The position numbers and the translations under genes are program-made. From assembly GCA_021813145.1 (NCBI GenBank), contig JAKALS010000004.1:8594-72593 (forward strand): DNA of 64,000 nucleotides, in the 5' to 3' direction. The notes beneath the pieces are model-generated. The model was not told the DNA's origin. It did not search any database and worked only from the letters and a program-made list of their open reading frames with translations. The stretch is from a bacterium (lineage in GTDB: Bacteria > Patescibacteriota > Microgenomatia > Levybacterales > UBA12049). Position 1 is the first letter of the stretch; the number at the start of each line of letters is the position of its first letter. Positions 1,260 through 45,881 of this stretch are shown in pieces.

Positions 1260-4200
1260 CGACAATTCTAAAAAAATGAAAGATTTAACAGTATTGGACT
1301 TTAAGGCTTTAAAGATTTTATTGGCCGGAAAAGAAGATATTCTTTCCTGGTCATACGGAGAGGTAACAAAACCGGAAACAATAAACTACAGAACTTTAAG
1401 GCCCGAAAAAGACGGACTTTTTGACGAAAGAATTTTCGGTCCCACAAAAGACTGGGAATGCTATTGCGGAAAATATAAGAGAATAAGAAACCGCGGGATA
1501 ATCTGCGATAAATGCGGAGTCGAGGTTACTTTATCGAGAGTGAGGAGAGAAAGAATGGGCCATATTACAATAGCAGCACCCGTTGCCCACGTGTGGTTCT
1601 TTAAGGGATCTTCTTCGCCCTTGTCTCTTATTCTGGATATGTCTCAGAAAAACCTTGAAAGCGTTATCTATTACGCTTCTTATCTTGTTGTAGGCATAGA
1701 CGAAGAAAAGAAAAAAGAAGCTCTTGCCACTCTTAATAAAACAATAGAGGCTAGAAAAGTCGAACAGAAAAAAGAAATGGAAGAGGAAGAAAAGAAAATC
1801 GAAGCCGAAATGGCAGACAAGAAAAAAGACAGCAAAGACATAAAAGTAAAAGGTGAACAAAAGACATTAATAGCGGAAGAGTTAGAGCTTCAGAAGAGAC
1901 AAAAAATAGCAAGACTTAAAGAAAGATTCGATACCGAAAATAAGAAACTCGAGGAAATTTCCGAAGCGCTTTCAAGGCTTCTTAAAAGCCTTAAGGTCGG
2001 AAGCGTACTTTCCGAAGACGAATATTACAAGATTCTGGAATACGATATTCCTGTTTTCTTCACAATTAAAACCGGCGCGGAAGGATTAATGGAGCTTGTA
2101 AACAAAATCGACCTTGCAGCTTTAATCATGTCTTTGAGGGAAGAGGCCGAGAAATCAAAAGGACAGAAATACTTAAAGGTAATAAAAAGACTAAGACTCA
2201 TCGAGGATATGAGAAAAGCGGGAGTTTCTCCTTCCAACATGGTATTTACGGTACTTCCCGTTATCCCTCCGGATTTAAGGCCTATGGTACAGCTGGCCGG
2301 CGGAAGATTCGCAACCTCGGACCTTAACGATTTATACAGAAGAGTAATAAACAGGAATAACAGACTGAAACACTTAATAGGACTCGGAGCTCCCGAGATA
2401 ATTTTAAGAAACGAAAAGAGAATGCTTCAGGAATCGGTCGATTCTTTAATAGACGCGTCTCAGAGAAGCGGACAGTTTGTTGCTTCGCCTTTGAGGTCTT
2501 TGTCTGACATGCTAAGGGGAAAACAGGGAAGATTCAGACAAAACCTTTTGGGTAAAAGGGTAGATTATTCCGGACGTTCCGTAATCGTCGTCGGACCCCA
2601 GCTTAATATTTCCCAGTGCGGACTTCCGAAAGAAATGGCTTTGGAAATGTTTAAACCCTTCGTACTTAGGGAAGTAATACTCAGAGGTTTTGCTCCTAAC
2701 ATCAAATCCGCTAAAAGATTTATAGAAAAAAGACCTCCCGAAGTGTTCGATATCTTGGAGGAAATAACAATGAATCATCCTGTCCTTTTAAACCGCGCGC
2801 CTACGCTTCATAAACTTGGAATCCAGGCATTCTATCCGATATTGACAGAGGGTTCGGCAATCTCTTTGCATCCTTGCGTTTGCGCAGGATACAATGCGGA
2901 CTTTGACGGAGACCAGATGGCAGTACATATTCCGCTTTCTCAAAAAGCACAGCAGGAAGCGATAGACCTTATGATGCCAAAAAACAATCTATTAAAACCC
3001 GCGGACGGAAGTCCGATTACTCTTCCCAACAAAGAAATGGCCGTCGGAGTTTTCTATCTTACTTCAATGGACGAGGCATTAAGAAAAGAGGAGATTCCTA
3101 TGTTTTCGGGTTATCATGAAGCTCTTTTGGCAAATTCGTTTAAAAAGGTATCCTTAAGGGAACCTATCAGCGTAAAAGTGGACGGAAAACTCGTAGAAAC
3201 AACCCTTGGAAGACTTATGTTCAACGAAAGACTTCCAAAGGCGTTAGGTTTTATAAACGAACCTATAAAAGCTTCGGGAATTAAAAGACTGGTTACAAGA
3301 GCTATTTCTCTTGTAAGTTCGGAAGAAGTAGCAAACCTTATAGACAGTATAAAAGCATTAGGATTCTACGGTTCCACGATTTCGGGAATTTCGGTTTCGG
3401 TATTCGATAATACAATGGTTTCGGAGAAAGGAAAGTTGATAAAAGAAGCTGAAGAGAAAGTCTCAGGAGTTGAAAATGACTATCAGGAAGGGCTTATTAC
3501 AAATGATGAGAAAAAGAGGCTTTCGAATGAAATCTGGCTCGAGACTACGGATAAACTTGCAAATCTTACATGGAATAATTTAAGCAAGGAGAATGTAATA
3601 AGGGTAATCATAGATTCCGAAGGAGCAAGGGCAGGAAAAGAACAGCTAAAGCAGCTTTCCGCCATGAGAGGACTAATTCTGGATCCTTTGGGAAAAATTG
3701 TCGAGCTTCCGATTAAATCGAACTTCAGACAGGGACTTTCAATTTTTGAATACGTGGCTTCGGCAAGAGGTTCGAGAAAAGGTCTTACGGATTCGGCATT
3801 AAAGACCGCAAATGCAGGATATCTGACCAGAAGACTCGTCGACGTTTCGCACGACGTAATAATAAGAGATGAAGATTGCGGAACTACGGAAGGAATAGTG
3901 ATAAAGGCAAACGAGGCCGACAGGACAGCCGCTTTCGGGGACAGAATTTTGGGAAGGTTTGCCGCTACGCACATTGTTTCGAAGAAAAATAAGAAAGAAC
4001 TGGTAAAAGCGGGCGAAGAAATAACGGAGGATAAGGTAAAAGAAATTCTTGACAATGAAATAGACGAAGTAGTCGTAAGAAGCCCGATTACCTGCAAACT
4101 TGAATACGGAATTTGCGTAAAATGCTACGGCTGGGATTTCTCAAACAGAAGAAAAGTAGACCTCGGAGTTCCGGTCGGAGTAGTAGCCGCACAGTCCATC

Positions 4201-4971
4201 GGAGAGCCGGGAACACAGCTTACGATGAGGGTAAGACATTTCGGAGGAGTCGTAATGAGCGACGTTACTCAAGGTCTTCCGAGGGTAGAGGAACTCTTTG
4301 AAATGAGAACTCCCAAAAACCTTTCGCCTATAACCGATATTGCAGGAAAAGTAAGCATAGAAACAACAGAAGACGGATATATAGTAAGAGTAAAGAATTC
4401 GAGAGTCAAACCAAACGAAGAAAGAGAATATTTTGTTCCCTTGGCATCGACACTAACAGTTTCTGACGGAGACGAAGTCGGGGTCGGAACACAGCTTGCA
4501 CAAGGATATTTGGATCCGAAGGAAATACTTAAAGTAAAAGACCTTTTGGATGCACAAAGATACATCATAAACGAAGCACAGAAAGTTTATGAATCACAGG
4601 GAATAGTAATAAACGACAAGCATTTTGAAGTAATTCTTAGAAAAATGTCCGATAAGGTAATAATAGAAACAGTCGGAGACACGGCTCTTATTCCGGGAGA
4701 CTTCATAACAAAGACAAGATTCGACGAGATAAATGCAGAAGTGTTATCCCAGGGCGGAGAACCTGCAACGGCAAGACAGGTAATACTGGGAATTACAAAG
4801 TCATCTCTCTTCTCAGATTCATGGCTTTCGGCTTCCTCGTTCCAGGAGACCACTAAAGTTCTTACGGAAGCTGCTTTGGAAGGGGCGGAAGACAAGCTTG
4901 TCGGACTTAAGGAAAACGTAATAATCGGAAGACTCATTCCGGTTGATAGCAAGGAAGCAGTTGAAGTATAA
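1252..4971 (+). CDS. rpoC: DNA-directed RNA polymerase beta' subunit
   Basis: 1239 aa; Zn-finger [23 protein letters not shown], catalytic [12 protein letters not shown] motif, overlaps rpoB stop. Confidence 0.97.
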
Positions 4972-5048
4972 TATCAACTCAGAATTCCGAATTTAGAATT
5001 CATAATTAAAATTCTAAACTCTGAAATATAAATTATAAATTTAATATA

Positions 5049-5528
5049 ATGCCTACATTATCACAGTTAGCTAAAAAAGGAAGAAACAGAAAAACAAAAA
5101 AGATAAGGTCAACAGGCCTTAGGCGTTTGTTTAATGCAAAAGACAGGGTATATACCGCTGTTCCGGCTCCCCAGAAAAGAGGAGTTGTGACCTTGGTTAA
5201 AACAATGACTCCCAAAAAACCTAATTCGGCTCTTCGAAAAGTCGCAAGAGTAAAGCTTTCAAACAAAACGGAGGTTACAGCATATATACAGGGAGTAGGA
5301 CATTCACTTTCAGAGCACGGAATAGTACTGGTAAGAGGCGGAAGGGTAAAGGACTTGCCCGGAGTTAAATACCACATAGTAAGAGGGAAATTTGATTTGC
5401 AGGGAGTCGAAGGAAGAAAAAGATCAAGAAGTAAATACGGAACAAAGAAAGGCGGAGGCGGGGGGCCTAAGGTAATTTCAGGCTCTGCTCCGTCGGCACC
5501 GGCACCGGCAGCAGCGCCAAGCGCGTAG
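5049..5528 (+). CDS. rpsL: 30S ribosomal protein S12 with ~30-aa Gly/Ala/Pro/Ser-rich C-terminal extension
   Basis: [12 protein letters not shown]... [10 protein letters not shown]... [15 protein letters not shown] motifs; 159 aa vs ~124 typical. Confidence 0.93.
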
Positions 5529-5546
5529 ATTAATGATTATTGAAAA

Positions 5547-6020
5547 ATGAGACATAAGAAAGTACAAAAAAGAAAAATTGAAAGCGATAAAGTTTACAAC
5601 AGCCAGCTTGTCGCAAAGTTTATTAATAACATAATGAAAGATGGTAAAAAAAGCGCGGCGGAAGCAGCTTTTTACGGTGCTTTCAAAGTCCTCGAGGGTC
5701 AGAATAAGAATGCAATGGAAATATTCGAAAAGGCAATCTCAAATGTCGGACCTAGAACCGAGGTAAAAGCAAGAAGAGTCGGAGGAGCTTCCTATCAGGT
5801 TCCGCAGGAAGTAAGAGGAGAACGAAAAACATCTTTGGCAATAAGATGGATAATAGAAGCTGCAAGGGCAAGGTCGAATAAAGACTTCAGGACGTTTGCG
5901 GATAAGCTCGCGGCAGAATTTACGGATGCTTCAAACAACGAAGGTGCGGCAATAAAGAAAAGAGACACGGTCTTAAGAATGGCAGAAGCAAACAGGGCAT
6001 TTAGTCACTTTAGATTTTAA
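5547..6020 (+). CDS. rpsG: 30S ribosomal protein S7
   Basis: 157 aa, S7-like sequence, str-operon position between rpsL and fusA. Confidence 0.93.
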   Translation: MRHKKVQKRKIESDKVYNSQLVAKFINNIMKDGKKSAAEAAFYGAFKVLEGQNKNAMEIFEKAISNVGPRTEVKARRVGGASYQVPQEVRGERKTSLAIRWIIEAARARSNKDFRTFADKLAAEFTDASNNEGAAIKKRDTVLRMAEANRAFSHFRF

Positions 6021-6050
6021 ATTTACTTCAGATAGTATATAATTGAATAG

Positions 6051-6073
6051 CTTCCGAGGGCGGGAGTTTTTTT
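6051..6073 (+). terminator. Hairpin CUUCCG-aggg-CGGGAG followed by T7 between rpsG and fusA (attenuator/terminator-like), preceded by TATAAT-like box at 6038-6043
   Basis: Seen directly in sequence; stem has one G-U pair. Confidence 0.4.
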
Positions 6074-6092
6074 AAGGCTAAGGTTCAAAAAT

Positions 6093-8204
6093 ATGGCAGA
6101 ACAAACACAAGACAGGTTAAAAAGTTTAGATAAAGTAAGAAACATAGGGATTATTGCCCATATAGACGCCGGCAAGACAACAACTACAGAGCGTATTCTT
6201 TTTTATACCGGAAAAACCTACAAAATAGGAGATATTGACGAAGGAAACACTCAGATGGACTGGATGGAACAAGAAAGAGAAAGAGGAATTACAATCGTTT
6301 CCGCCGCAACTACGGCTTTTTGGAAAGATTACAGAATAAATATTATAGATACTCCCGGACATGTAGATTTTACCGCAGAAGTTGAAAGGTCGTTAAGGGT
6401 TTTAGACGGGGGAATAACTGTTTTGGACGCGGAAGAAGGAGTGCAATCGCAGTCAGAAACAGTCTGGAGACAGGCAGATAAATATAAAGTTCCTAGGCTT
6501 TGTTTTGTAAACAAAATGGATAAATTAGGAGCGGATTTTCTCGCAACTGTTAAATCCATAGAAGACAGACTCGGGGCAAATCCCCTTATAATGGTTCTTC
6601 CCATCGGTTCGGAATCTTCCTATAAAGGGATAGTTCATTTATTGGAAATGAAATCTTATATCTGGGGCTCGGACGAGTTGGGTGCAAAATTTGAGGTTTC
6701 GGATGAAATACCCGAAGACATGAAGGCCCAGGTGGAAGAATACAGGCATAAACTTATTGAAAAAATAGCGGAAACCGACGACGTTTTAATAGAAAAATAT
6801 TTAAACGGAGAAGAAATTTCAAACGACGAATTAAAAGCGGCTTTAAGGCGTGCGGTAATCGCTTATAAACTTGTCCCGATTTTTGCAGGATCATCTCTTA
6901 GAAACAAAGGTGTTCAGCCCCTTTTGGATGCGGTAGTAGATTATCTTCCTTCGCCTTTGGATGTGGGAGCAGTAACCGGAACAAATCCAAAGACAAACGG
7001 AGAAGAAAAAAGAGAGCCTAAAGAAGCAGATCCCATGGCAGGACTTGCTTTTAAAATACAGATAGACCCGCATGTTGGAAAACTCACATACTTTAGGGTC
7101 TATTCCGGAAAAATCCAGGCGGGTTCCTATATTTATAACTCCAATAAAAACAACACGGAAAGAGTCGGAAGGATTCTTTTGATGCATGCAAACCACAGGG
7201 AAGAAATAAAAGAAGCTTATGCGGGAGAGATTGTAGCTTTGGTCGGACTTAAGGATACAATAACAGGGGACACGCTTTGCGATGAAAATGCACCCATAAT
7301 TTTGGAGCAGATCTCTTTTCCCGAACCCGTTATTTCTTTGGCAATAGAACCAAAAACAAAAGCGGACCAGGAAAAACTGGGGTTTGCTCTTAAAAGGCTT
7401 TCCGAAGAAGATCCGACATTTTCTATAAAAACAAACCACGAAACAGGACAGACAATTATCTCGGGAATGGGAGAATTACAACTTGAGGTTATGGTAGACA
7501 GGATGAAAAGAGAATTCGGTGTTTTGGCAAATGTCGGAGCTCCCCAGGTAGCTTATAAGGAAACTGTTAAGGGAGAGGGAGAAGGAGAAGGAAAATACAT
7601 AAGACAGTCCGGAGGACATGGACAATACGGACACTGCTGGCTTAGGGTTAAACCCAAGGCAAGAGGTGAAGGATACGAGTTTGTCGATGCTATTAAAGGA
7701 GGAGCAATCCCCGCGGAGTTTGTTGTTTCTATACAAAAAGGAGTCAAGGAGACAATGGAAAACGGAATTCTTTTGGGATACCCGATGGTGGATATGGAAG
7801 TAACGGTTTATGACGGAAGTTTCCACGAAGTAGACTCTTCCGATATGGCATTTAAGATAGCAGCTTCCCAGGCCTTACAGGCAGCGGCCAAAAAAGCAGA
7901 ATTGTCGCTTTTGGAGCCTATTATGAAAGTTGAAGTTACGACTCCTTCGGAGTTTATGGGAGATGTAATAGGAGATTTGTCCGCAAAAAGGGCGCAGATT
8001 ATGGGAACGGAAGAAAGAGGGAAAGCAACTGTTATTTTGGCAATGGTTCCTTTGGCCGAGCTTTCCGGTTATGCAACAACTTTAAGGTCTATGTCGCAAG
8101 GCCGTGCATCTTATTATATGGAACCTTCACATTACGAAGAAGTTCCGCAAAATATAGTAGCCCAAATGCTTGCAAAATCCACATTTACGGGAAGAGTCGA
8201 ATAA
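6093..8204 (+). CDS. fusA: Elongation factor G
   Basis: 703 aa; G-domain [27 protein letters not shown] motifs. Confidence 0.97.
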
Positions 8205-8678
8205 TCAGGCCGCGGAGGGATAATCTCTTTGAATTCTTCTTAATTGATTGTTAAAATTTTTTGTTATATCGTTTCTGCTTCTACTTCCGTCTAAAAGTAT
8301 TAATCTTTGGCTTGCAAGCCATTCTCTTACCGGGACATGGATTCCGGTTTTTGATAGTCTATTTCCAATTTGTTTTATAAACTCACTTACTCCTGTTTGA
8401 CTTGATTTAACCTGTACCCAAACGATGTCCCCTGTTACTAAATGAACGGTTAAATCTCTTCCTCTTATGTCCTCATCGCTGAATTGTTCGTTTCTTATTA
8501 CTTCTTCAACCGTGTCCTGTCCTTGAATAACTGCGGCGGCTCTCATTTCGGATTTTCTTCCCCTTTTTTGGTCTTCGTGATAGCGTTCGAGTTCTTTTAT
8601 TTGTGAAGAAGAGAGTAAGGAGGTATCCCGGTATCCGGGAAAAAAGTTTCCTGGGGCAATTTCTACTGCAATTGCCAT
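8205..8678 (-). CDS. Hypothetical protein (157 aa), convergent with fusA with zero spacing
   Basis: ORF only; Arg/Gln-rich, no motif recognised; first gene of accessory insertion between fusA and tuf. Confidence 0.45.
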   Translation of the reverse strand: MAIAVEIAPGNFFPGYRDTSLLSSSQIKELERYHEDQKRGRKSEMRAAAVIQGQDTVEEVIRNEQFSDEDIRGRDLTVHLVTGDIVWVQVKSSQTGVSEFIKQIGNRLSKTGIHVPVREWLASQRLILLDGSRSRNDITKNFNNQLRRIQRDYPSAA

Positions 8679-8730
8679 CTAATTCCATTTTTAATTATAG
8701 AAATTACTTTGTCAATACAGCAAAAACGGG

Positions 8731-8739
8731 TGATATAAT
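8731..8739 (+). promoter_or_regulatory. Extended -10 promoter TGATATAAT, 6 nt upstream of the ATG at 8746 (predicts leaderless mRNA)
   Basis: Sequence match to TGnTATAAT; possible -35 TTGTCA at 8709-8714 with 19-nt spacer. Confidence 0.5.
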
Positions 8740-8745
8740 TTAATC

Positions 8746-9345
8746 ATGATGAATGATGCTGTCAGACAAGGGTATAACAAAGTTGCCGATAAATATCTGG
8801 AAGAAAGAGATCAATTTAAAAACGATAAATACCTCAAGAAATTCAATTCTTTACTTTCTCCCGAGTCTTTAATTTTAGATATAGGGTGCGGAGCAGGAAA
8901 ACCGGTGGACAAGTTTTTCATACAGCACGGACATCGAATAATCGGAATAGATATTTCGGAAAAACAAGTGGAACTTGCCAGGCAAAATGTTCCTCAGGGT
9001 TTGTTTAAGGTTGAAGATATGTCAGCCCTTAAACCCGGGGAATATAAAGTAGATGCTGTTATTTCGTTTTATGCAATTTTTCATATCGACAGAGAAACTC
9101 ATTTCGAGTTATTCAAAAAGATTTATTCATTTCTACCGACAGGCGGGTTAATTATGGTTACAATGGGATCAAGTAGCTGGGAAGGAAGCGAAGAAGATTT
9201 TCATGGTGGTAAAATGACTTGGAGCCATTTTGGAAAAGAGAAAAATAGACAAATAGTTGAGGCACAGAGCTTTAAGGTTTTAACAGATGAAATTGATGAA
9301 AACGGAAATGAAAAACATCAAGTAATTATTGCCAAAAAAATATGA
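8746..9345 (+). CDS. Class I SAM-dependent methyltransferase
   Basis: LILDIGCGAGKPVD (motif I GxGxG), acidic residue after beta2 (IGIDISE), 199 aa. Confidence 0.8.
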   Translation: MMNDAVRQGYNKVADKYLEERDQFKNDKYLKKFNSLLSPESLILDIGCGAGKPVDKFFIQHGHRIIGIDISEKQVELARQNVPQGLFKVEDMSALKPGEYKVDAVISFYAIFHIDRETHFELFKKIYSFLPTGGLIMVTMGSSSWEGSEEDFHGGKMTWSHFGKEKNRQIVEAQSFKVLTDEIDENGNEKHQVIIAKKI

Positions 9346-9872
9346 CAAAGACTAAAACAGGAAAAGAAATAACAATAAGATATCCGAGAAAATCCGATGC
9401 AGAAGAAATGTGGAGGTATATTAACGAACTTTCAAAAGAAAAAACTTTTGTAAGGTTTCAGGGCGAAGAAGTTTCTTTTGAAGACGAATCTAAATATCTG
9501 GAAACGATGCTTAAAAGAATAGAAGAAAAAAAGTCGGTTACACTTATGGCATTTTTCGGAGAAGAAATAATAGGAATTACCGGTATTAACATGATGGAAA
9601 AGACGGAAAAACACATTGGGGTTTTCGGAATTTCGGTTGCAAAAGATTATAGAAATGACGGTGTGGGAAAAATTCTTATGGAAAAAGTAATAGAAGAAGC
9701 AAAGAAAAACATAGAGGAATTAAAGATTATAATACTTGAGGTCTATGCCAAAAACTCCATTGCAAAAAGGGTGTACGAAGGGTTCGGCTTTAAGCAGTAT
9801 GGTCTTTTGCCGGAAGGAATAATAAGAGACGAGGGTTTTGATGACGCCCTTTTTATGTACAAAAAAATATGA
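9342..9872 (+). CDS. GNAT family N-acetyltransferase (RimJ/RimL-size)
   Basis: IGVFGISVAKDYRNDGVGKILMEKVIEEAKK acetyl-CoA binding motif (R/Q-x-x-G-x-G/A); start overlaps upstream stop (ATGA). Confidence 0.8.
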   Translation: MTKTKTGKEITIRYPRKSDAEEMWRYINELSKEKTFVRFQGEEVSFEDESKYLETMLKRIEEKKSVTLMAFFGEEIIGITGINMMEKTEKHIGVFGISVAKDYRNDGVGKILMEKVIEEAKKNIEELKIIILEVYAKNSIAKRVYEGFGFKQYGLLPEGIIRDEGFDDALFMYKKI

Positions 9873-10288
9873 ACGATAAAAATGTAAAAGTTGGAGTGGG
9901 AGTGATGGTTTTAAAAGACGGAAAAGTACTTCTTGGAAAAAGAAAAGGTTCTCACGGAGAAGGAGAATACGCATTTCCCGGTGGACATATGGAATTCGGA
10001 GAATCTTTTGAGGATTGCGCAAAAAGGGAAACTTTTGAAGAAACAGGAATAAAAATAAAAAATGTCAGATTTATTCTTTTATCGAATATAAAAATCTGGG
10101 AAGGTAAACATTATATTCACATAGGTTTATTGGCAGATTGGGAAAGCGGGGAACCGGAAGTTAAGGAAATAAATAAAGCGGAGAATTGGGATTGGTACGA
10201 GCTGGATAAATTGCCAAGCCCTTTATTTCTTCCGGTTATCCAGGAAATAGAAGCATATAAGGAAGGTAAAAATTTTATAGACTCATGA
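9869..10288 (+). CDS. NUDIX hydrolase
   Basis: Nudix box GGHMEFGESFEDCAKRETFEETGI; ATGA overlap with GNAT. Confidence 0.85.
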   Translation: MNDKNVKVGVGVMVLKDGKVLLGKRKGSHGEGEYAFPGGHMEFGESFEDCAKRETFEETGIKIKNVRFILLSNIKIWEGKHYIHIGLLADWESGEPEVKEINKAENWDWYELDKLPSPLFLPVIQEIEAYKEGKNFIDS

Positions 10289-10911
10289 GTAATAATTTTT
10301 GCACCATTTATTTGGTAAGACACGGACTTTCGGGAGCAAATGTAGCAAGAACAGTCGGAGGAAATACGGGTCTTGTTGAGAAAGGAAAAGAGCAAGCCAT
10401 GGAGTTGGGAAAGAAATTAAAAGATATAGATTTTGCCGCGGTTTTTTCTTCCGATTTGTTAAGAGCTAGACAGACAGCAGAGCTAATTATTGAAGGAAGA
10501 AATTTGGAAGTTTCAACACACAAGGAATTAAGGGAAAGAAGTTTTGGAAGCATAGATAACAAAAACGATAAAGAATTCATTCACCTTTTTCAAGCTTTAA
10601 AAGATGTATCGGATGATGAGTATTGGAAGTGGAAAATAGTAGATGATATGGAAAGCGCACAGGAAGCTTTCGGAAGATTTTTTAATGCTTTAAAGAAAAT
10701 CTCAAAAAAATATTTAGGTAAAGAAATTTTGATAGTAAGTCATGGAACGGTAATGCGTTCTTTACTGGTTTATCTGGGTTATGGAAGTTTTAAAGAACTT
10801 CCTACAAATTCTCTACAAAACACGGGTTATATAAAATTAAAAAGTGATGGCGAAAATTTCATAATTGAAGATACATGGGGTGTTAATAAAATGAAAGGAT
10901 TATCATTGTAG
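10285..10911 (+). CDS. Histidine phosphatase (phosphoglycerate-mutase-like) family protein
   Basis: IYLVRHGLSGAN (RHG catalytic motif), ...ILIVSHGTVMRSL second His motif; ATGA overlap with upstream. Confidence 0.8.
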   Translation: MSNNFCTIYLVRHGLSGANVARTVGGNTGLVEKGKEQAMELGKKLKDIDFAAVFSSDLLRARQTAELIIEGRNLEVSTHKELRERSFGSIDNKNDKEFIHLFQALKDVSDDEYWKWKIVDDMESAQEAFGRFFNALKKISKKYLGKEILIVSHGTVMRSLLVYLGYGSFKELPTNSLQNTGYIKLKSDGENFIIEDTWGVNKMKGLSL

Positions 10912-10912
10912 G

Positions 10913-11431
10913 ATGGAGCCTAAAGAATTTTATAAATTTTGTCCAAAGTGCGGAGGGGATTTGATTCCCGGAGAAGAACAGCTTCTTATTTGCGGTAAGT
11001 GTTCTTTCCGCTTTTACATTAATCCTTTGCCTTGCAATGCGGCGATCTTGGAAAACGAAAAGGGCGAAATACTTCTTGTAAAAAGAAAATACGACCCGAT
11101 GAAAGGATACTGGGATTGGCCGGGAGGTTTTATAGACCCGGGGGAAAGCCTTGAAGATTCGGTAAAAAGAGAAATAAAAGAAGAGCTAAATGTAGATATT
11201 AAAGTTATGGGGATTATCGGAGTTTATAACGACAGATATCTTTATCAAGATATTTTGCATTACTCTTTATGCGCTGCGGTATCGGCGAAAATAACTGCGG
11301 GACAATTAAAAGCCAACGATGACATAGATGGATTTGAATTTTTTAACAAAGACAAAATACTTAAACTGGATTTTGCATTTCCCTCGATTAAAAAAGGAAT
11401 AGAAGATTACTTTAAAAAGAGAAAAGTTTAG
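10913..11431 (+). CDS. NUDIX hydrolase with N-terminal C4 zinc ribbon (NudC-like architecture)
   Basis: CPKCGG...CGKCSF zinc ribbon then Nudix box GGFIDPGESLEDSVKREIKEELNV. Confidence 0.8.
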   Translation: MEPKEFYKFCPKCGGDLIPGEEQLLICGKCSFRFYINPLPCNAAILENEKGEILLVKRKYDPMKGYWDWPGGFIDPGESLEDSVKREIKEELNVDIKVMGIIGVYNDRYLYQDILHYSLCAAVSAKITAGQLKANDDIDGFEFFNKDKILKLDFAFPSIKKGIEDYFKKRKV

Positions 11432-13665
11432 GCTTTTTCGAAAATTACGTTTGAAGAATCTATGGGTACTGCTTGAGGCTCTTTGATTTTCTCATCCGGT
11501 TTTTTCTCGTGTATTTTTTCTTCCTTTTTGTTTTTTGAATACCTTTGTGCGGAAACTTTAATAACTTTTTCCCTGTTTTGGGTTTTTGATTGTGGCAAAG
11601 GTAGGGTTTGGGCAAGAAAAGGTGCCGTTGTTATAGAATCTATGGAGAGTTTTGTTAATATCTGGTAGTTCCCCAAAGCCAAAAGGTCATCTTCTTTAAA
11701 TCTTTCCCCGAATTCTTTTGCAAGATAGTAAGTGTCCTGCGCTCCGACTACGAAAGACAAAAGGGTTCCGATATTTCCGAATATTGCTGACCTTACATCA
11801 TCGGGTATTTGCGCCATATATTGGTTTGCCAAAATTAAATTAAGCCTGTATTTTCTTGCCTCGGACAATATTTTTATAAACGAACCCGTTGCAAAATTTT
11901 GGAACTCGTCTACATAAAGATAAAAATCTTTTCTTTGGGCTTCGGGTATATCGACTCTTTTCATTGCCGCAAGCTGTATTTTTGTAATTATCATCGCTCC
12001 CAAAAGAGATGAGTTATCTTCTCCGAGTTTTCCCTGCGACAGGTTAAGAATTAGAATTTTTCCTTCGTTCATTATCTTTTCAAGGTCTATTGTTGATTTG
12101 GGGTGACCTATTATATTTCTTACAGTCGGAGAGGAAACAAACTGCCCGACTTTATTAAGGATGGGAGATATGGACTCGCTGTAAAGCTTGGGAGGCATTT
12201 TTTCAAACTCATTTTGCCAGTAGCTTTTAAGGACAGGATCCTTAAGGTCTTTTACTATTTTATCCCTGAAACTTTTATCCGTTAGAAGTGGGTGTACATC
12301 CATAAATGTTGAATCCGGTTTTTCCAAAAGGGTAAGGACTGTATTTCTTAAAATGTATTCGAGTCTGGGTCCCCATGATGTTCCGTAGAGTTTCTTGAAT
12401 ATTGAAACTATTCCCGATGCAATCAACTCTTTTTGCGTTGTCCCTGCTTCCAGAGGATTTAAATGGAAAGAGCTGTCCGGGTCGGAGGGATTAAGGTAAA
12501 TTATGTCGTTAATTCTGTAAGAAGGAATATAGTCTAAGATAAGAGAAGTCAAATCTCCGTGCGGGTCTATAACGGCAAGGCCTTCGTTATTTCGCATATC
12601 GTTTATAAGCATATTTGCGATAAGAGTTGATTTTCCCGCTCCCGTTTTTCCCACAATATACTGATGTTTCCTTCTGTCATTTCTTTTTATACCGAAATTT
12701 GTAATTTTGTTTTTAAATTCCGTGTTTGCAAAAAAATTAATCTCCTTTTTCTCTTCTTGCGAAAGGTTTGCGGCAATAGGTAGATTTTCCGGCGGCTCGG
12801 AAAGGATTGTTTTTGTCCAGGAGAGATTATGGATTTTAGAAAGCTGTTCGGTAGGAAGATGATAAAGGGTTGCTATTTCCGACACATTTAAAATTTCGCT
12901 TGCCGGAATAAATGCTTTTGTCCTTTCCATTATTGCCCTGTGCAGTCTTTTTCTTTGCCAAAGTACGGGTCTTCTTAAAAAGAGGCTGTTTCCGGAAGGG
13001 TTTGAAAAAATAGAGAAGCCGTTGGTTATCTGGAAAAAATCCGAGTTGTTTGCCGTTTTTGCAAGAATTCTTATTCCCGTCTTAAAACCGTTTTTGCCGA
13101 TTTTTTCAGTAATAAATTTTGAATAAGGATTGGCGCCTTCTCCCGGTTCTTTCTGAAGGCTTTTTTGTCCTCTTGACTGCCACGACTGTGAAACGGGAAG
13201 AAGCAGGTATTGGATAACGACGGCGTTATCTTTATCCATTTTGGAAAGAAGGCTTAAAAGCGAAGAGAGGGGGTCTACTTCTTTATAATCTCTATAATTT
13301 TTTAATGGGTAAATAAAAGAAGATCGTAGTTTTAATCTTCCTTCGTGAATAACTCCCTTTCCTTCTAAAAGTGCAGGCAAATAATCTTTTACCTCGTTTA
13401 TAAGTGCTTTGGGATACTGAGCGCTGAGTTGTCCGATAACGAATGTTTGGTAGGCTTTTGGAACGACCAGGAAAAAATGTATCTGCTGGTCAAAAACCGC
13501 TATTTCCAAACTTATGGGAATACCCTTTTTGTAGACATATAAAATGGAACGCCTCAAGTTGGTTAAGCTGGCCAGAAACTGTTCCATGGCCTCGGGCGTT
13601 TCTTCGGATTTTCTCGGGGTTTTTATCTCAAGGACCGTTTTTTTGTCCATATTTAGCTTATGCAA
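11428..13665 (-). CDS. FtsK/HerA/TraG-VirD4-superfamily P-loop ATPase (type IV coupling-protein-like), 745 aa
   Basis: Walker A GKTGAGKST followed by VIDPHGD, Walker B LYVDEFQNF; no obvious N-terminal TM segments; convergent with the 5-gene cassette. Confidence 0.55.
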   Translation of the reverse strand: MHKLNMDKKTVLEIKTPRKSEETPEAMEQFLASLTNLRRSILYVYKKGIPISLEIAVFDQQIHFFLVVPKAYQTFVIGQLSAQYPKALINEVKDYLPALLEGKGVIHEGRLKLRSSFIYPLKNYRDYKEVDPLSSLLSLLSKMDKDNAVVIQYLLLPVSQSWQSRGQKSLQKEPGEGANPYSKFITEKIGKNGFKTGIRILAKTANNSDFFQITNGFSIFSNPSGNSLFLRRPVLWQRKRLHRAIMERTKAFIPASEILNVSEIATLYHLPTEQLSKIHNLSWTKTILSEPPENLPIAANLSQEEKKEINFFANTEFKNKITNFGIKRNDRRKHQYIVGKTGAGKSTLIANMLINDMRNNEGLAVIDPHGDLTSLILDYIPSYRINDIIYLNPSDPDSSFHLNPLEAGTTQKELIASGIVSIFKKLYGTSWGPRLEYILRNTVLTLLEKPDSTFMDVHPLLTDKSFRDKIVKDLKDPVLKSYWQNEFEKMPPKLYSESISPILNKVGQFVSSPTVRNIIGHPKSTIDLEKIMNEGKILILNLSQGKLGEDNSSLLGAMIITKIQLAAMKRVDIPEAQRKDFYLYVDEFQNFATGSFIKILSEARKYRLNLILANQYMAQIPDDVRSAIFGNIGTLLSFVVGAQDTYYLAKEFGERFKEDDLLALGNYQILTKLSIDSITTAPFLAQTLPLPQSKTQNREKVIKVSAQRYSKNKKEEKIHEKKPDEKIKEPQAVPIDSSNVIFEKA

Positions 13666-13776
13666 TTATAGCATTCCATTAAGAATAAGAAAAACTTCTT
13701 ACTTCTTTCTTACCTAACCTTAAAATAATTTTTACTGTCAGGATTTAACATGACTGCAGTATGGTAAAAGTCTACC

Positions 13777-13810
13777 AGAATGAGACCTCCAAAAAGGTCT
13801 CATTCTTTTG
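13777..13810 (+). promoter_or_regulatory. Perfect 11-bp hairpin AGAATGAGACC-(8)-GGTCTCATTCT followed by TTTTG, immediately 5' of yggT-like gene
   Basis: Seen in sequence. Confidence 0.4.
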
Positions 13811-14134
13811 AGAATTATGAAAGTAGCAGGATTTTTTTCAACCATAATAAATATAGTCTTCACCGTAATAGAGCTTTTGATAGGAGCAAGAGTTGTATTG
13901 AGGCTTTTGGGTGCCAATCCTTTTACTCCATTTGTTAACTGGGTCTATACGCTTTCCTCGGCTCTTATTTCTCCGTTTGCCAATATTTTTCCGAGCCCGG
14001 TTCTTAGAGGCGGATTTGTTTTGGATATTCCCGCGATCGTGGGACTTCTAGTTTATGCAATTTTGGCCTACGTAATTTTTCAGCTCATTGAATTTTTGTC
14101 GTACAAAAGGACAACAGTGTATACAACTCCTTAA
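13808..14134 (+). CDS. YggT-family small integral membrane protein
   Basis: 108 aa, two hydrophobic segments, conserved ...SPFANIFP...RGG.VLDIPAIVGLL pattern similar to YggT/Ycf19. Confidence 0.55.
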   Translation: MRIMKVAGFFSTIINIVFTVIELLIGARVVLRLLGANPFTPFVNWVYTLSSALISPFANIFPSPVLRGGFVLDIPAIVGLLVYAILAYVIFQLIEFLSYKRTTVYTTP

Positions 14135-14208: not shown

Positions 14209-15390
14209 ATGGCAGAAACATATCAAAGAACAAAACCACACGTTAATATCGGAACCATCGGTCATGTAGACCATGGTAAGACAACATTAACAGCAGCAAT
14301 TGCTACTGTTTTATCCAAACAGGGTAAAGCAAAAGCGATGAAATATGAAGATATTGATAACGCCCCGGAAGAAAGAGCAAGGGGAGTCACCATCAATATT
14401 ACCCACGTAGAATACGAAACAGAAAAAAGGCATTATGCACATATAGATGCTCCGGGACATGCCGATTATATTAAGAACATGATTACGGGAGCCGCCCAAA
14501 TGGACGGTGCAATCCTCGTAGTCTCGGCCCCCGACGGACCCATGCCTCAAACAAGAGAACACATTTTACTAGCACACCAGGTTCAGGTCCCTTCAATAGT
14601 AGTATTTCTTAATAAATGCGATATGGTTTCGGATCCCGAACTCTTGGACTTGGTTGAAATGGAAGTAAGGGAACTTCTCACAAAATACCAGTATCCGGGA
14701 AATGATGTGCCGATTATAAGAGGCTCGGCTCTTAAAGCTTTAGAAGGCGACGCGGAAGCAGAAAAACAAATACTGGCATTAATGGATGCGGTAGATAATT
14801 ATATTCCTACACCTGTAAGAGATACCGAAAAACCTTTCCTTATGCCTGTTGAAGACGTTTTCTCAATAAAGGGGAGAGGGACAGTCGTAACGGGAAGAAT
14901 AGAAAGAGGCAAGATTAAAATCAACGATCCGGTCGAAATAATAGGAATCAAACCCACAAGACAGTCGGTTGTAACGGGCGTAGAAATGTTTAGAAAACAG
15001 CTCGATGAAGGAATGGCCGGAGATAACGTAGGACTTCTTCTTAGGGGTGTAGAAAAAACCGATGTAGAAAGAGGACAGGTTGTTGCAAAACCCGGATCGA
15101 TAACACCCCACACACAATTTGAAGCAGAAGTTTATATCCTTACAAAAGAAGAAGGAGGAAGACATACTCCCTTCTTTACAGGATACAGGCCGCAATTCTA
15201 TATAAGGACAACGGACGTAACCGGAGAAGCTACGCTTCCTTCCGGAGTAGAAATGGTAATGCCCGGAGATAACGCAAAAATGAATGTAAAACTTATTGTG
15301 CCGGTTGCTATGGAAGAAGGATTAAGGTTTGCAGTAAGAGAAGGCGGAAAGACGGTAGGAGCAGGAGTAATTTCCAAGATTATTGCTTAA
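14209..15390 (+). CDS. tuf: Elongation factor Tu
   Basis: 393 aa; [22 protein letters not shown] motifs. Confidence 0.98.
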
Positions 15391-35194: not shown

Positions 35195-35853
35195 TGGCAG
35201 TAGAAAGAATCGGAGATTCTCTTAGGGAAGAGTCAGGAATTGAACGGGAAGTCGTTCAAAGCGCCGGAGTGGCGCTTTTAATAGTAGGTTTTGATCCTTT
35301 AAAAAACGGAGATAATATAACGGATCCCCTTATCTGGACAATAACCGAACTTCAGGATAAACCCGAAACACAAAAAAGGGCAGGAGACACTTCTATTCCA
35401 TCAGAAACAAGAAAACAAAATGAAACAAGAACACAGAATATTTTGGGAGCTTTGGCTGAATTTTGTGATGAAGGCTGCGTAGGCGGATTAAGCAGACATT
35501 TATTTTTTGCCCCCGGTTCTTATAAGGATGAAGCAATTTCTATAAACGGCAATCTTGTAGATATCGGCGTTTTGGTTTACGACGGTCCTTTAGATGTTTT
35601 TTTTAATCCCCAAAACTGCGAGGAGGTCTCGGGAAACGGATGGCAAAAAAGAAGCGTTATCGAGCAAGGAGAAAATATAAGAAGTGTTTTAAGGCTTGCG
35701 CTGGAGGAGGATAAAAAAGAGGGTTTAACAAGAAAGGCACTCGAGACGTACTATGCAAATTCCGGGATACAAATAGTCCCGGAAGGTTTTTCTATAAGAA
35801 ATTATTACCAAGCAAGAGAAAGCCGAAAGGACCTTACCCTTAAAAAAGGTTAA
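35194..35853 (+). CDS. Hypothetical protein (219 aa) translationally coupled to IPK (TAATG)
   Basis: ORF only; no recognisable motif; operon context with isoprenoid genes. Confidence 0.5.
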   Translation: MAVERIGDSLREESGIEREVVQSAGVALLIVGFDPLKNGDNITDPLIWTITELQDKPETQKRAGDTSIPSETRKQNETRTQNILGALAEFCDEGCVGGLSRHLFFAPGSYKDEAISINGNLVDIGVLVYDGPLDVFFNPQNCEEVSGNGWQKRSVIEQGENIRSVLRLALEEDKKEGLTRKALETYYANSGIQIVPEGFSIRNYYQARESRKDLTLKKG

Positions 35854-36914
35854 TTCTGTCTTATCCTCATTGATTCTATGAGTATTAAACAAATTTCCTT
35901 GCATTCTTCCGGCAGAAGAGAATTTTCTATTATTTTTTTTGCTTCATTTAAATTTTTAAGAATTTCCAGTTTTCCTTCTTCTATAGCTCTTGATTTCTCA
36001 AAAATTTCTATAACTTCTTTCTGCTCATTATCTTTTAATTCTTTTCCGAAATATTTTAATAATTTTTCTTTTTGTTGTTTTGTTCCTTTTTCAAAAACAT
36101 AATCCGTAAAAAAAGTATGCTGGTGTTCGGCAATATCCCTTAGAGTATTTTTCTCCAATATTTTAGGGTCTCCTACAATATCCAGCAAATCGTCCTGCAT
36201 TTGGAAAGCAATTCCTAGCCTAGTCCCCAGCTCTTCGCAAAAAGCGTCCATATTGCTGTTGGGGTTTGCTAGATGGGCTCCTATTTGCATGGGCCTGACA
36301 AAGGTGTAGCGGGAAGTTTTAAGCCTTGTTTTATCCTCAATTAAGTTTTTCTTTGCCTTTTTTCTTGTTGCTATATCTATATCCAGAATCTGGCCGAAAC
36401 ATAATTCGTCCACCATTTTGTAAAAATAATTTTGGCTGCTGTTGAGATTTTCCTTTGGAAAATTTTTGTTTCCCAGGAAAAGTTCCATTGCCCAGGAAAA
36501 AAAGAGGTCTCCCATCAGTATCCCCTGGGCGTTTGAGGCGTTTTCCAGATCTCCCGTTCTTTTTTCTTCCTTAAGCCTTTTTAAAACAAAAGCGGGAATT
36601 GTATCCACGCCGTGTCTTTTGTATTGTTTATCCATTATGTCGTCGTGGATCAATGCAAAGTTATGAAATATTTCCAAAGAAACAAAAAGTTTTAATGCGT
36701 TTTGTATATCTTTTCCTCCGTTTGCCGTGTACATTACATAGGCAATGTACGGCCTTATCCTTTTTCCTCCGGCCATTGTTAATTTTTCCGAGTATTCTAT
36801 AAAATCTTTTATGAAATTATCTGAAGAATTAGACGAAAACTTCTTAAGCCTTTGTTCGAGAAAATTTTTTAGTATGGGGTCGAAGACCTGCTTAAATTCC
36901 TGTAGGTTATACAT
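35850..36914 (-). CDS. Polyprenyl (geranylgeranyl/farnesyl) diphosphate synthase; start moved to ATG 36914 because tracked start 37001 runs through tRNA-Pro
   Basis: FARM FALIHDDIMD and SARM MQDDLLD motifs. Confidence 0.85.
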   Translation of the reverse strand: MYNLQEFKQVFDPILKNFLEQRLKKFSSNSSDNFIKDFIEYSEKLTMAGGKRIRPYIAYVMYTANGGKDIQNALKLFVSLEIFHNFALIHDDIMDKQYKRHGVDTIPAFVLKRLKEEKRTGDLENASNAQGILMGDLFFSWAMELFLGNKNFPKENLNSSQNYFYKMVDELCFGQILDIDIATRKKAKKNLIEDKTRLKTSRYTFVRPMQIGAHLANPNSNMDAFCEELGTRLGIAFQMQDDLLDIVGDPKILEKNTLRDIAEHQHTFFTDYVFEKGTKQQKEKLLKYFGKELKDNEQKEVIEIFEKSRAIEEGKLEILKNLNEAKKIIENSLLPEECKEICLILIESMRIRQN

Positions 36915-36920
36915 AAAAAG

Positions 36921-36991
36921 TCGGGGTGCCGAGAATTGAACTCGGCCCACACGCACCCCATGCGCGCATTCTACCGATAAACTACACCCCG
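36921..36991 (-). tRNA. tRNA-Pro (anticodon GGG)
   Basis: Hand-folded cloverleaf: 7-bp acceptor CGGGGUG/CACCCCG with C1-G72 and A73 (bacterial Pro identity), anticodon loop AUGGGGU, T-arm CCGAG-UUCAAUU-CUCGG. Confidence 0.8.
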
Positions 36992-37086
36992 TTTGTGCCA
37001 TTGAATTATATCAAAAAAAGTCCAGGCATGGTACAGTTTGACCTATTGTATTTTGTTAGAGTTTTGTTCTACAATATTTCAGAAAT

Positions 37087-44895: not shown

Positions 44896-44912
44896 TAGAG
44901 GTTATTGTATCA

Positions 44913-45881
44913 CTAATTTTCGCTCTTTTCGCCTATTCTTTTTGTAGAATTAAGCTTTTGTCCGAGTTGCAAAAATCCCGAAGTTACGTTGTTAAATTGT
45001 GTATAGGCGTTATTCAAATGCTTACCTAAAACATTAAGACTTTCGTTTGTTTTGTCGTAGTCTATTTGAAGCGCTCTAAGCATTGCAAAAACTTCTCTTG
45101 ATTTTGCCTCCAGCTTTTTACCTTCAAAAGAAAGAAGAATTGTCTGAAGGTGTGCATAAAGGGTAGAAGGTGAAACTATATAAACTCTTGCCCTTCTTGC
45201 ATATTCCATGATGTCCTGGCTGTTTACGACTTCGTAGAAAACCGACTCGCTCGGAACATACATAAGGGCAAAATCCATTGTTCCTTCCGCCGGCAAAATG
45301 TATTTTTTCGAAATAGCGTCTACGTGTTTTTTAACGTCTTTAATAAATTCCTTTTCATATTGTTCTTTTTCACCGTTTACTGCTTTTGTCATTTTCTGGA
45401 AATTTTCCATAGGGAATTTGGAGTCTATCGGTAAAATCCCCGCGTCTGTTTTTATTGCGGCATCCACCTTTTCTCCCGATTTAAATTCGTATTGTAAATT
45501 AAAACTGTTTTTGGGAAACATTTGTGCGATTAAATCCTTAAGCACCTGTTCGCCTATATTTCCCCGAAGCTTAGGGCTTTTTAAGAATTCCTGGAGCTCA
45601 CGCATATTCCTTCCAATTTCGTTCATCTGCCCGACCTCTTTGCTTACGTCTCTCATTGCAAGAGCAGCTTTATCTAATCTTTCGTTTAATTGTCTTGAAT
45701 TTTCCTGCAGAGTTTTCACCATATTGCCGGTTGAGGAGTTCATTGTATTTTGCATGGACTTTAGCCATTCCATTAAAGCCTCGTCGGTTTTTTGGGTGTT
45801 TGATTTTTTATTTAGTAAATAAAACATAATTCCAAATCCTAAGATTACAATAAGAAACAGTATGGTGAATTCAAAAGACAT
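44913..45881 (-). CDS. rmuC: DNA recombination protein RmuC
   Basis: N-terminal TM, coiled-coil, C-terminal DFALMYVPSESVFYEV region typical of RmuC. Confidence 0.75.
   Translation of the reverse strand: MSFEFTILFLIVILGFGIMFYLLNKKSNTQKTDEALMEWLKSMQNTMNSSTGNMVKTLQENSRQLNERLDKAALAMRDVSKEVGQMNEIGRNMRELQEFLKSPKLRGNIGEQVLKDLIAQMFPKNSFNLQYEFKSGEKVDAAIKTDAGILPIDSKFPMENFQKMTKAVNGEKEQYEKEFIKDVKKHVDAISKKYILPAEGTMDFALMYVPSESVFYEVVNSQDIMEYARRARVYIVSPSTLYAHLQTILLSFEGKKLEAKSREVFAMLRALQIDYDKTNESLNVLGKHLNNAYTQFNNVTSGFLQLGQKLNSTKRIGEKSEN

Follow-up and report, generated by a model that had tools for sequence, protein, structure and literature searches.

An anchor-less DUF8128 ATPase related to type IV coupling proteins in a Levybacterales genome

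Main finding

The subject of this analysis is a gene on the minus strand of a 64,000-nucleotide (nt) stretch of a Levybacterales genome (GenBank assembly GCA_021813145.1, contig JAKALS010000004.1; hereafter 'the window', meaning the whole stretch), where it encodes a P-loop ATPase of 740 amino acids (aa) at positions 11428..13650. We are highly confident that this protein belongs to a family, here called DUF8128-T4CP, in which the Pfam domain DUF8128 precedes an ATPase of the type IV coupling protein (T4CP) kind. We propose that the gene is the anchor-less Microgenomates form of this family and that its product acts as a substrate-feeding motor, a statement that as a whole could equally well prove right or wrong. 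That the motor is coupled to a type IV secretion system (T4SS) in particular is a more tentative proposal, to which we give somewhat less than an even chance. The family is already catalogued and near-universal in Patescibacteria, and the window gene adds a member to it. It is an ordinary member at that, and no special feature of the ribosomal operon in which it resides.

The family merits attention because Patescibacteria account for a large part of bacterial diversity and rely on other cells, and because their T4SS is essential in the one genetically tractable species. Almost all Patescibacteria keep one or two orphan coupling-type ATPases. The range of hypotheses on their role is narrowed by three results described below, namely the VirB4-like fold predicted for DUF8128, the occurrence of the same architecture in actinobacterial coupling proteins, and the anchor-less form found in Microgenomates.

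Gene product and domain architecture

The original prediction described a stand-alone FtsK/HerA/VirD4-like ATPase of 745 aa at 11428-13665. An open reading frame (ORF) of that extent is indeed present on the minus strand, both in the ORF list and in translation, but the length needs correction. Translation from the ATG at 13650 gives a protein with 100% identity to the 740 aa of database protein P0001, which is seen on six contigs; the true length is therefore 740 aa rather than 745, and this ATG is most likely the start codon. The coding sequence for the DUF8128 domain and the VirD4-like ATPase thus occupies 11428..13650 on the minus strand and closes with a TAA stop at 11428-11430. The existence of more than 7,800 homologues, together with a confident AlphaFold2 model, indicates that this is more than a chance ORF.

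Four parts can be distinguished in the translation, all encoded on the minus strand. The N-terminal domain (aa 1-262; 12865..13650) corresponds to PF26449 (DUF8128), to which the precomputed Pfam annotation of P0001 and of its encoding contigs assigns the N-terminal ~300 aa, and is predicted to consist of tandem beta-alpha-beta units with a fold like that of the VirB4 N-terminal domain. A conserved linker (aa 263-303; 12742..12864), with the pattern YHLP...NLSW...EPPENLP, joins it to a RecA-like nucleotide-binding domain of T4CP type (aa 304-690; 11581..12741). Within the latter, an all-alpha insertion (aa 404-530; 12061..12441) is the counterpart of the T4CP all-alpha domain; it lies inside the TrwB_AAD_bind match, and the AlphaFold2 model places helices in it at residues 404-425, 428-443, 449-457, 459-467, 472-482, 487-506 and 508-514. 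The C-terminal tail (aa 691-740; 11431..11580) begins with a predicted helix (aa 693-712) and ends in a Lys/Glu-rich stretch (aa 713-740) with pLDDT (predicted local distance difference test) values below 50; 11 of the 50 tail residues are lysines and seven are glutamates.

The catalytic motifs named in the original prediction are borne out by the translation. Walker A (GKTGAGKST, aa 334-342; 12625..12651) has residues G334, G337, G339 and K340 invariant in a family alignment of 67 sequences, and in Walker B (LYVDEFQNF, aa 578-586; 11893..11919) residues L578, Y579, D581, E582, F583, Q584, N585 and F586 are each at least 90% conserved. The motif VIDPHGD (aa 360-366; 12553..12573) is likewise present, although it follows Walker A at a distance of 18 residues and not immediately, as had been stated. 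HMMER aligns it with the TrwB counterpart IVDPNGD; D362 and G365 are invariant in the same alignment, and P363 and H364 reach at least 90% conservation. An R599-K600 pair is also conserved, and in the linker H264, P266 and P291 are invariant while W278, P287 and L290 are at least 90% conserved. The family is under strong purifying selection, and from these residues the P-loop motor is predicted to be catalytically intact. Both features of the DUF8128-T4CP family, the N-terminal DUF8128 domain and a C-terminal TrwB/TraG-type P-loop ATPase attached to it by the linker pattern HxP...W...PPxNLP, are present in the window protein.

The absence of a transmembrane N-terminus, also part of the original prediction, is corroborated by hydropathy analysis, in which the 19-residue Kyte-Doolittle mean peaks at 1.42 across the protein; the ORF cannot be extended upstream.

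Family assignment by profile and predicted structure

Profile searches place the ATPase half close to coupling proteins. Among Pfam models, TrwB_AAD_bind matched aa 319-649 with 36.2 bits (cut-off 20.5; 4e-9), DUF87 scored above its cut-off (5e-7), and TraG-D_C reached 24.1 bits against a cut-off of 22 (4e-5). FtsK_SpoIIIE (PF01580) stayed below threshold with 12.4 bits (cut-off 24), as did AAA_10 with 19 bits (cut-off 27.5), and neither CagE_TrbE_VirB nor P-loop_TraG gave a match. The top NCBIfam matches were to TraD and VirD4-like families, with scores under the equivalog or subfamily cut-offs (44 versus 366 bits for TraD). The VirB4 model TIGR00929 and the HerA equivalog NF040819 remained far lower still (22 bits against a cut-off of 643, and 15 against 970). 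When a profile of 67 family members was searched against the PDB, TrwB (2.6e-7) and DotL (1.7e-5) were the best matches, aligned through the P-loop and the DPxGD motif. The original assignment to the HerA/FtsK/VirD4 clade consequently holds at the level of the superfamily and can be refined to VirD4/TrwB-like, the specific HerA and FtsK models being below their cut-offs.

Structural comparison adds a different perspective on the N-terminal half. An AlphaFold2 monomer model built from the 67-sequence alignment has a mean pLDDT of 90.6, with only aa 713-740 disordered. In a Foldseek search of the PDB with this full model, TrwK/VirB4 of plasmid R388 ranked first (E 2e-16) and aligned over both domains, HerA followed (E 5e-13), and TrwB aligned with the ATPase half only (TM-score normalised to the target, TMt, 0.61-0.66 over ~410 columns, with ~14% identity). 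A separate model of aa 1-300 (pLDDT 89.7) gave 13 matches at E<=1e-3, all of them TrwK/VirB4 chains, the best with an E value of 4.8e-7, a probability of 1.0 and a query-normalised TM-score (TMq) of 0.54. Because no other P-loop ATPase occurs among the 13 matches, we infer that the matched part is the N-terminal domain specific to VirB4; Foldseek printed no target coordinates, and the assignment rests on the predicted model. This likeness is invisible at the level of sequence profiles, since hhalign found nothing when the DUF8128 alignment was compared with the VirB4-like protein of an Embleya plasmid (described below), and we have accordingly rejected sequence-level homology between DUF8128 and the VirB4 N-terminal domain.

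Taken together, the profile and Foldseek results suggest a protein in which a VirB4-like N-terminal domain is joined to a VirD4-like motor bearing an all-alpha insertion. With TrwB, VirD4, DotL and Cag-beta it shares Walker A followed by DPxGD, Walker B, the all-alpha insertion and the motor fold. Canonical T4CPs differ in that they have an N-terminal transmembrane domain, lack a VirB4-like soluble N-terminal domain and are encoded together with relaxase or T4SS genes. With TrwK/VirB4 it shares the two-domain layout and the predicted N-terminal fold, TrwK/VirB4 being the only solved structure that matches the DUF8128 model, but there is no N-terminal sequence similarity, the VirB4 hidden Markov models fall far below threshold, and the ATPase half is closer to T4CPs. 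HerA, FtsK/SpoIIIE and the defence protein mad8 belong to the same P-loop superfamily, as the DUF87 score reflects. However, the window protein has neither the HAS-barrel nor the N-terminal fold of HerA and no NurA or other nuclease partner, and it lacks the 4TM, alpha and gamma domains of FtsK, a genuine copy of which co-exists with the family in Saccharibacteria.

Distribution across Patescibacteria

With the full-length protein as query, 7,807 significant homologues were found. The top 120 share 58-73% identity with it across 95-100% of its length, and those of them with a named source are labelled mostly as Patescibacteria, Microgenomates, Daviesbacteria or Saccharimonadales. The N-terminal part (aa 1-305), searched with phmmer, gave 1,551 clusters at 50% identity. 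We also scanned one genome per GTDB species, which revealed at least 600 loci, and kept 80 of these for ORF calling and clustering of the neighbouring genes. The 80 loci include, within Microgenomates, Shapiro-, Roizman-, Ames-, Collier- and Daviesbacteria, and beyond them Saccharibacteria, Dojkabacteria, lineages of Parcubacteria, Peregrinibacteria, Abawacabacteria and Gracilibacteria. The closest GTDB species genome among them is a Shapirobacteria metagenome-assembled genome, at 55% identity, so that the source of the window is probably a Microgenomates species as yet unsampled. The family is found in all Patescibacteria classes, in agreement with a published survey in which 2,918 of 3,035 Patescibacteria genomes had VirD4-type T4CP homologues, 5,713 proteins in total (Quinonero-Coronel et al. 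2025, PMC12102498). Our literature search found no publication that mentions DUF8128.

The members differ in their N-termini and in the way they are encoded. Microgenomates-type members are 43-55% identical to the query and are single genes mostly of ~710-740 aa (four are longer, at 825-1,110 aa), with neither an N-terminal extension nor a hydrophobic helix. Most members from outside Microgenomates, and one from Daviesbacteria, carry an N-terminal extension of 35-65 aa with a hydropathy of 1.4-3.4. The membrane anchor has, judging from the translated N-termini, been lost in the Microgenomates clade, the window protein included, and the anchored relatives in Saccharibacteria, Dojkabacteria, Peregrinibacteria, Parcubacteria and Gracilibacteria suggest that the family acts at the membrane. 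Saccharibacteria members align with residues 3-727 of the window protein at 37-42% identity and, like the window gene, lie away from virB4 and have no relaxase; the window protein differs from them in lacking the N-terminal membrane helix and in being shorter (740 versus 830-1,130 aa). Longer tails in relatives include S1 domains in two of the 48 long members (for example P0131, aa 782-850) and a C-terminal NUDIX fusion in one (P0177, aa 835-965), while the remaining long tails show no Pfam domain.

Clustering of the neighbours in the 80 loci revealed no universal partner gene, and two arrangements recur. In Saccharibacteria the order is dprA, topA, a gene of ~350 aa and then the family member (~830-1,040 aa), and in some of these genomes two members occur on one contig (L029, L075), so that paralogues exist. 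In Parcubacteria-type loci (L035, L036, L044, L047, L066, L080, L084, L085) two adjacent genes take the place of the single one, the first of ~440-490 aa for the anchor and DUF8128 and the other of ~540-650 aa for the ATPase, usually after secD-secF and the same ~350-aa gene; the two domains can thus work as separate polypeptides. The conserved ~350-aa gene bears Sigma70_r4 and HARE-HTH domains, and no copy of it lies in the window.

This ~350-aa gene deserves a remark of its own. It directly precedes the membrane-anchored members of Saccharibacteria and Parcubacteria (L043, L048, L035, L036, L085 and others), and its product has no match to sigma region 2 and is therefore probably no normal sigma factor. 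An apparent fusion of this protein with the ATPase in one locus (L062, an ORF of 1,340 aa) proved to be an artefact of a masked run of N. A further observation concerns organism names, as many GTDB species genomes from third party annotation (TPA) assemblies labelled 'uncultured Gammaproteobacteria/Pseudomonadales bacterium' carry Microgenomates-type copies (L010, L015, L017, L019, L021, L022, L024, L027, L030). The longer contigs of these genomes have Patescibacteria-like neighbourhoods around the gene, and the organism names are probably wrong.

Link to conjugation systems

Relatives on plasmids connect the family to conjugation. A tblastn search of plasmids with the ATPase half found 715 records. 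Among the matches listed, which come from Bacillus, Streptomyces, haloarchaea and Sulfolobus, most bear annotations for T4SS DNA-binding, conjugative DNA transfer or TraM-recognition proteins. In the Embleya plasmid NZ_CP108778, a cluster in the order PrgI, VirB4-like, T4CP, Replic_Relax and NlpC/P60 contains an 812-aa T4CP. By hhalign its residues 78-395 match the DUF8128 alignment (probability 96.7%, E 3.6e-10), and its ATPase is 33% identical to that of the window protein. A search with the N-terminal region of this Embleya protein yielded 83 proteins, most with precomputed PF26449, and those with a named source belong to Streptomyces, Kitasatospora, Frankia, Nonomuraea, Acidimicrobiia and Pseudonocardiaceae. 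A comparable module on the Nonomuraea rubra chromosome comprises T4SS_pilin, TrbL_3, PrgI, a split VirB4, the DUF8128 protein, a small unknown gene, Replic_Relax and NlpC/P60, and a Pontibacillus megaplasmid holds a decayed copy beside a pilin-like gene of the Mbov_0395 type.

Since actinobacterial conjugative clusters carry DUF8128 together with the ATPase, this architecture is the one that a genuine monoderm coupling protein has. The Embleya and Nonomuraea proteins share with the window protein the order of DUF8128 and TrwB/TraG-type ATPase. They differ in being part of a complete module (pilin, VirB6-like, PrgI, VirB4, T4CP, Replic_Relax and NlpC/P60), whereas the window gene stands alone, and in having an N-terminal extension of ~77 aa before DUF8128, which the window protein lacks. 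A monoderm-type architecture fits the published conclusion that the T4SS of Patescibacteria derives from the monoderm mating-pair formation class MPF-FATA.

Three observations on individual relatives may be added. On the Bacillus thuringiensis Bt407 plasmid BTB_502p (L090), positions 3052-8653 encode a type IA topoisomerase, a 305-aa hypothetical protein and a T4CP; this order echoes that of topA, the ~350-aa gene and the family member in Saccharibacteria, and it may be what remains of a conjugative module for DNA processing. The alphaproteobacterial plasmid NZ_CP081110 of Sulfitobacter mediterraneus (L089) encodes at 8935-10122 a 395-aa homologue that consists of the ATPase only, is 40% identical to the ATPase half and thus closer than any actinobacterial or Bacillus coupling protein, and has transposase genes immediately downstream. 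Finally, five members from Streptomyces, Frankia and Acidimicrobiales (P0276, P0300, P0305, P0307, P0336) are named 'type VI secretion protein' at NCBI. Four of the five carry precomputed DUF8128, and the name seems misapplied, a T4SS coupling-type protein being the more likely identity.

Genetic evidence from Ca. Southlakia epibionticum

Published supplements on strain ML1 (Wang et al. 2023) allow a family member to be recognized in a genetically tractable species. The protein SEML1_0293, one of the orphan VirD4-like T4CP homologues of Patescibacteria, has matches to PF10412, PF12696 and PF01935 at aa 402-719; these are the same Pfam ATPase matches as in the window protein, here preceded by an N-terminal region of ~400 aa. 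Its gene adjoins one for a 349-aa 'RpoS', and two genes further on lies that for a type I topoisomerase, a neighbourhood that matches the Saccharibacteria synteny found in our 80 loci. Genes scored as essential by transposon sequencing (Tn-seq) in the same study include that for 'RpoS' (SEML1_0294, of the Sigma70_r4 type), the T4SS cluster, FtsK (SEML1_0096) and a T4CP-like ATPase (SEML1_0142). The essential T4SS was described as lacking recognisable coupling and relaxase proteins (Wang et al. 2023).

Proposed role and alternative readings

We envisage that this VirD4/TrwB-type family would have been inherited from monoderm conjugation machinery of the Actinobacteria/Firmicutes type to become the near-universal chromosomal gene now seen in Patescibacteria. 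By analogy with TrwB and VirB4, the protein may assemble into a ring-shaped, hexameric ATPase. The N-terminal domain of TrwK contacts VirB3, VirB8 and the membrane in the R388 structure, and the ring could dock through its own VirB4-like N-terminal domain onto a membrane platform, most plausibly the relaxase-less chromosomal T4SS of the phylum or else a membrane-anchored paralogue. ATP would then be used to hand a polymer substrate, be it DNA, nucleoprotein or unfolded protein, to that platform.

Several points weigh against a substrate-feeding motor of this kind. A transmembrane anchor is among the traits that define canonical T4CPs, and the window protein lacks one; moreover, the 64-kb window contains no T4SS gene in a Pfam scan of ~37 ORFs. 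In the survey cited above, 148 of the 5,713 Patescibacteria T4CP homologues lie near virB4, and relaxases are almost absent from the phylum (103 genomes of 3,035; PMC12102498). The same survey found virB4 in 2,417 of the 3,035 genomes, which leaves at least 501 genomes (2,918 minus 2,417) with a T4CP homologue and no detected virB4. In S. epibionticum ML1 the family member SEML1_0293 was non-essential by Tn-seq at all three time points, whereas the T4SS genes were essential (Wang et al. 2023). Finally, the oligomeric state, the substrate and the partner in our proposal are all inferred. The linkage figures also bear on the original prediction, which considered a solitary copy unusual; this view has to be given up, as 148 in 5,713 makes a solitary copy the rule in a near-universal family that is normally encoded away from virB4. 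A full T4SS elsewhere in the genome, which the original prediction named as grounds for its refutation, is likely for the phylum, given the 2,417 of 3,035 genomes with virB4.

Some of these points speak for an exapted cytoplasmic nucleic-acid motor that would operate independently of any T4SS and translocate or remodel DNA or RNA, for instance when incoming DNA is processed in natural transformation or chromosomal DNA is resolved or handled. The T4CP homologues are more widely spread than virB4 and rarely linked to it, exaptation was raised as a possibility by the authors of the survey (PMC12102498), and the Microgenomates clade has apparently lost its transmembrane anchor. The S1 domains at the C-terminus of two long members are nucleic-acid-binding domains, the tail of the window protein is basic and rich in lysine, and synteny with topA (23 of the 80 loci) and dprA (16 of the 80) recurs in Saccharibacteria and some Microgenomates. 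Yet this synteny is found mostly within one class and is convergent in Microgenomates, and dprA-topA is also an ancient pair of genes independently of the family. Competence in S. epibionticum is demonstrated by deletion of comEC, but this gives no link to the family gene. Replacement of FtsK was rejected because the FtsK profile falls below its cut-off and because Saccharibacteria have a bona fide, canonical and essential FtsK in SEML1_0096. On balance, we judge an exapted motor, the main rival to our proposal, to be on the unlikely side.

Two bolder proposals may be set beside it, namely that the anchor-less Microgenomates clade in particular was exapted from conjugation to a T4SS-independent, cytoplasmic nucleic-acid motor for housekeeping or DNA acquisition in these symbionts with reduced genomes and, separately, that the family is a living intermediate between VirB4 and VirD4 that has kept the N-terminal domain of VirB4. 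These we consider rather unlikely.

The predicted fold might alternatively be taken to mean that the protein is a paralogue of the assembly ATPase VirB4, energising pilin extraction and the assembly of a pilus or channel rather than receiving substrates. Foldseek aligns the model co-linearly with TrwK/VirB4 over both domains, with TrwK alone matching the N-terminal domain. Microgenomatia and Saccharimonadia possess large arrays of VirB2-like pilins, and one homologue with 62% identity has a T4SS_pilin gene (a weak match) and an N_methyl pilin gene nearby. However, the VirB4 sequence models (TIGR00929, AAA_10 and CagE_TrbE_VirB) fail on the protein, and so does the hhalign comparison of DUF8128 with the Embleya VirB4-like protein. 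Moreover, Embleya and Nonomuraea have a separate, genuine VirB4 encoded directly upstream, while their DUF8128 protein occupies the T4CP position by a relaxase-like gene. A role as a VirB4 paralogue is therefore improbable.

A role in anti-phage defence, with the protein as a HerA- or MADS-type (mad8) ATPase acting with the nearby methyltransferase and NUDIX genes, is very improbable and can be regarded as largely refuted: PADLOC does match the ATPase to mad8 (1.4e-14) and several HerA models, the methyltransferase at 8746-9345 to mad2 (4e-18) and both NUDIX proteins to the candidate defence family PDC-S07 (1e-14 and 3e-18), and one family member has a fused NUDIX domain, but MADS detection requires mad6, mad7 and mad8 (bioRxiv 10.1101/2023.03.30.534895) and no neighbour in the window locus matches mad6 or mad7. 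The mad2 match covers the generic Rossmann part only, in a methyltransferase encoded on the strand opposite the ATPase, and with no other MADS component present we read it and the PDC-S07 matches as generic similarities. Nor is there a NurA, Sir2 or other nuclease partner among the neighbours, a NUDIX neighbour occurs in just one of 21 related Microgenomates-type loci, and the near-universal, vertically conserved spread of the family is unlike that of defence islands.

Genomic setting in the window

Eight non-ribosomal genes (8205-14134) lie between fusA (6093-8204) and tuf (14209-15390). Upstream, the gene order is rpoC, S12, S7 and elongation factor EF-G, with rpoC and S12 known from gene calls on an identical contig. 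After EF-G follow a 157-aa protein of unknown kind on the minus strand and then, all on the plus strand, a small S-adenosylmethionine (SAM) methyltransferase (199 aa, of the CMAS/Methyltransf_25 type by Pfam; 8746-9345), a GNAT protein, a first NUDIX protein (9869-10288), a histidine phosphatase and a second NUDIX protein (10913-11431). The ATPase gene is convergent with this last gene, which its 3' end overlaps by 4 nt, and beyond it come a divergent gene for a YggT-like membrane protein, EF-Tu and S10. Other contigs of this organism (L001, L002) carry an identical block of these eight genes.

The original prediction had noted that no partner genes are encoded nearby, and the Pfam scan of window ORFs agrees, having turned up no gene for VirB4, a relaxase, a nuclease, a pilus or competence. 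The ORFs scanned are of a housekeeping nature and include RecA, SecA, aminoacyl-tRNA synthetases, TsaD and an AddA-like helicase. Relatives with 60-73% identity sit in unrelated neighbourhoods (CLIPPER/Rho/LysM-M23, CYTH/DHO_dh or glycosyltransferases), and no relaxase or other DNA transfer and replication (Dtr) gene, virB4 or T4SS gene was found near those examined. The location between fusA and tuf is thus incidental, and a place within the str/S10 ribosomal region is a peculiarity of this genome. Insertion by a mobile element was considered and rejected, given that no tRNA or integrase lies beside the gene and that its GC content is similar to that of the flanks. In IMG/VR only relatives of the ATPase half were found, none with DUF8128. 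A functional tie to the adjacent NUDIX genes as a general feature was also rejected, on the count of one in 21 loci with a NUDIX-box neighbour.

Signals for expression of the ATPase gene are less distinct. An extended -10-like box, TGCTATAAT, can be read from the sequence at 13665..13673 on the minus strand, 14 nt 5' of the ATG, and the TTG listed as the start of the 745-aa ORF (13665) falls within it. Between this box and the ATG no Shine-Dalgarno sequence can be read. A scan for consensus promoters around the gene gave six sites where 6.8 were expected, which is not above chance and makes the box tentative, and a terminator scan around the gene was likewise not above chance.

Two further observations concern other parts of the window. 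A tRNA-Pro gene (anticodon ggg; ARAGORN) at 36920-36991 on the minus strand overlaps the polyprenyl synthetase ORF (35850-37001) at its 5' end, and this ORF therefore probably starts further downstream. Elsewhere, at 55324-56835 and 42037-45881, the window encodes a lysyl-tRNA synthetase of class I (archaeal type) and a UvrD helicase resembling AddA; the helicase has a PD-(D/E)XK nuclease fused to it and is followed by RmuC.

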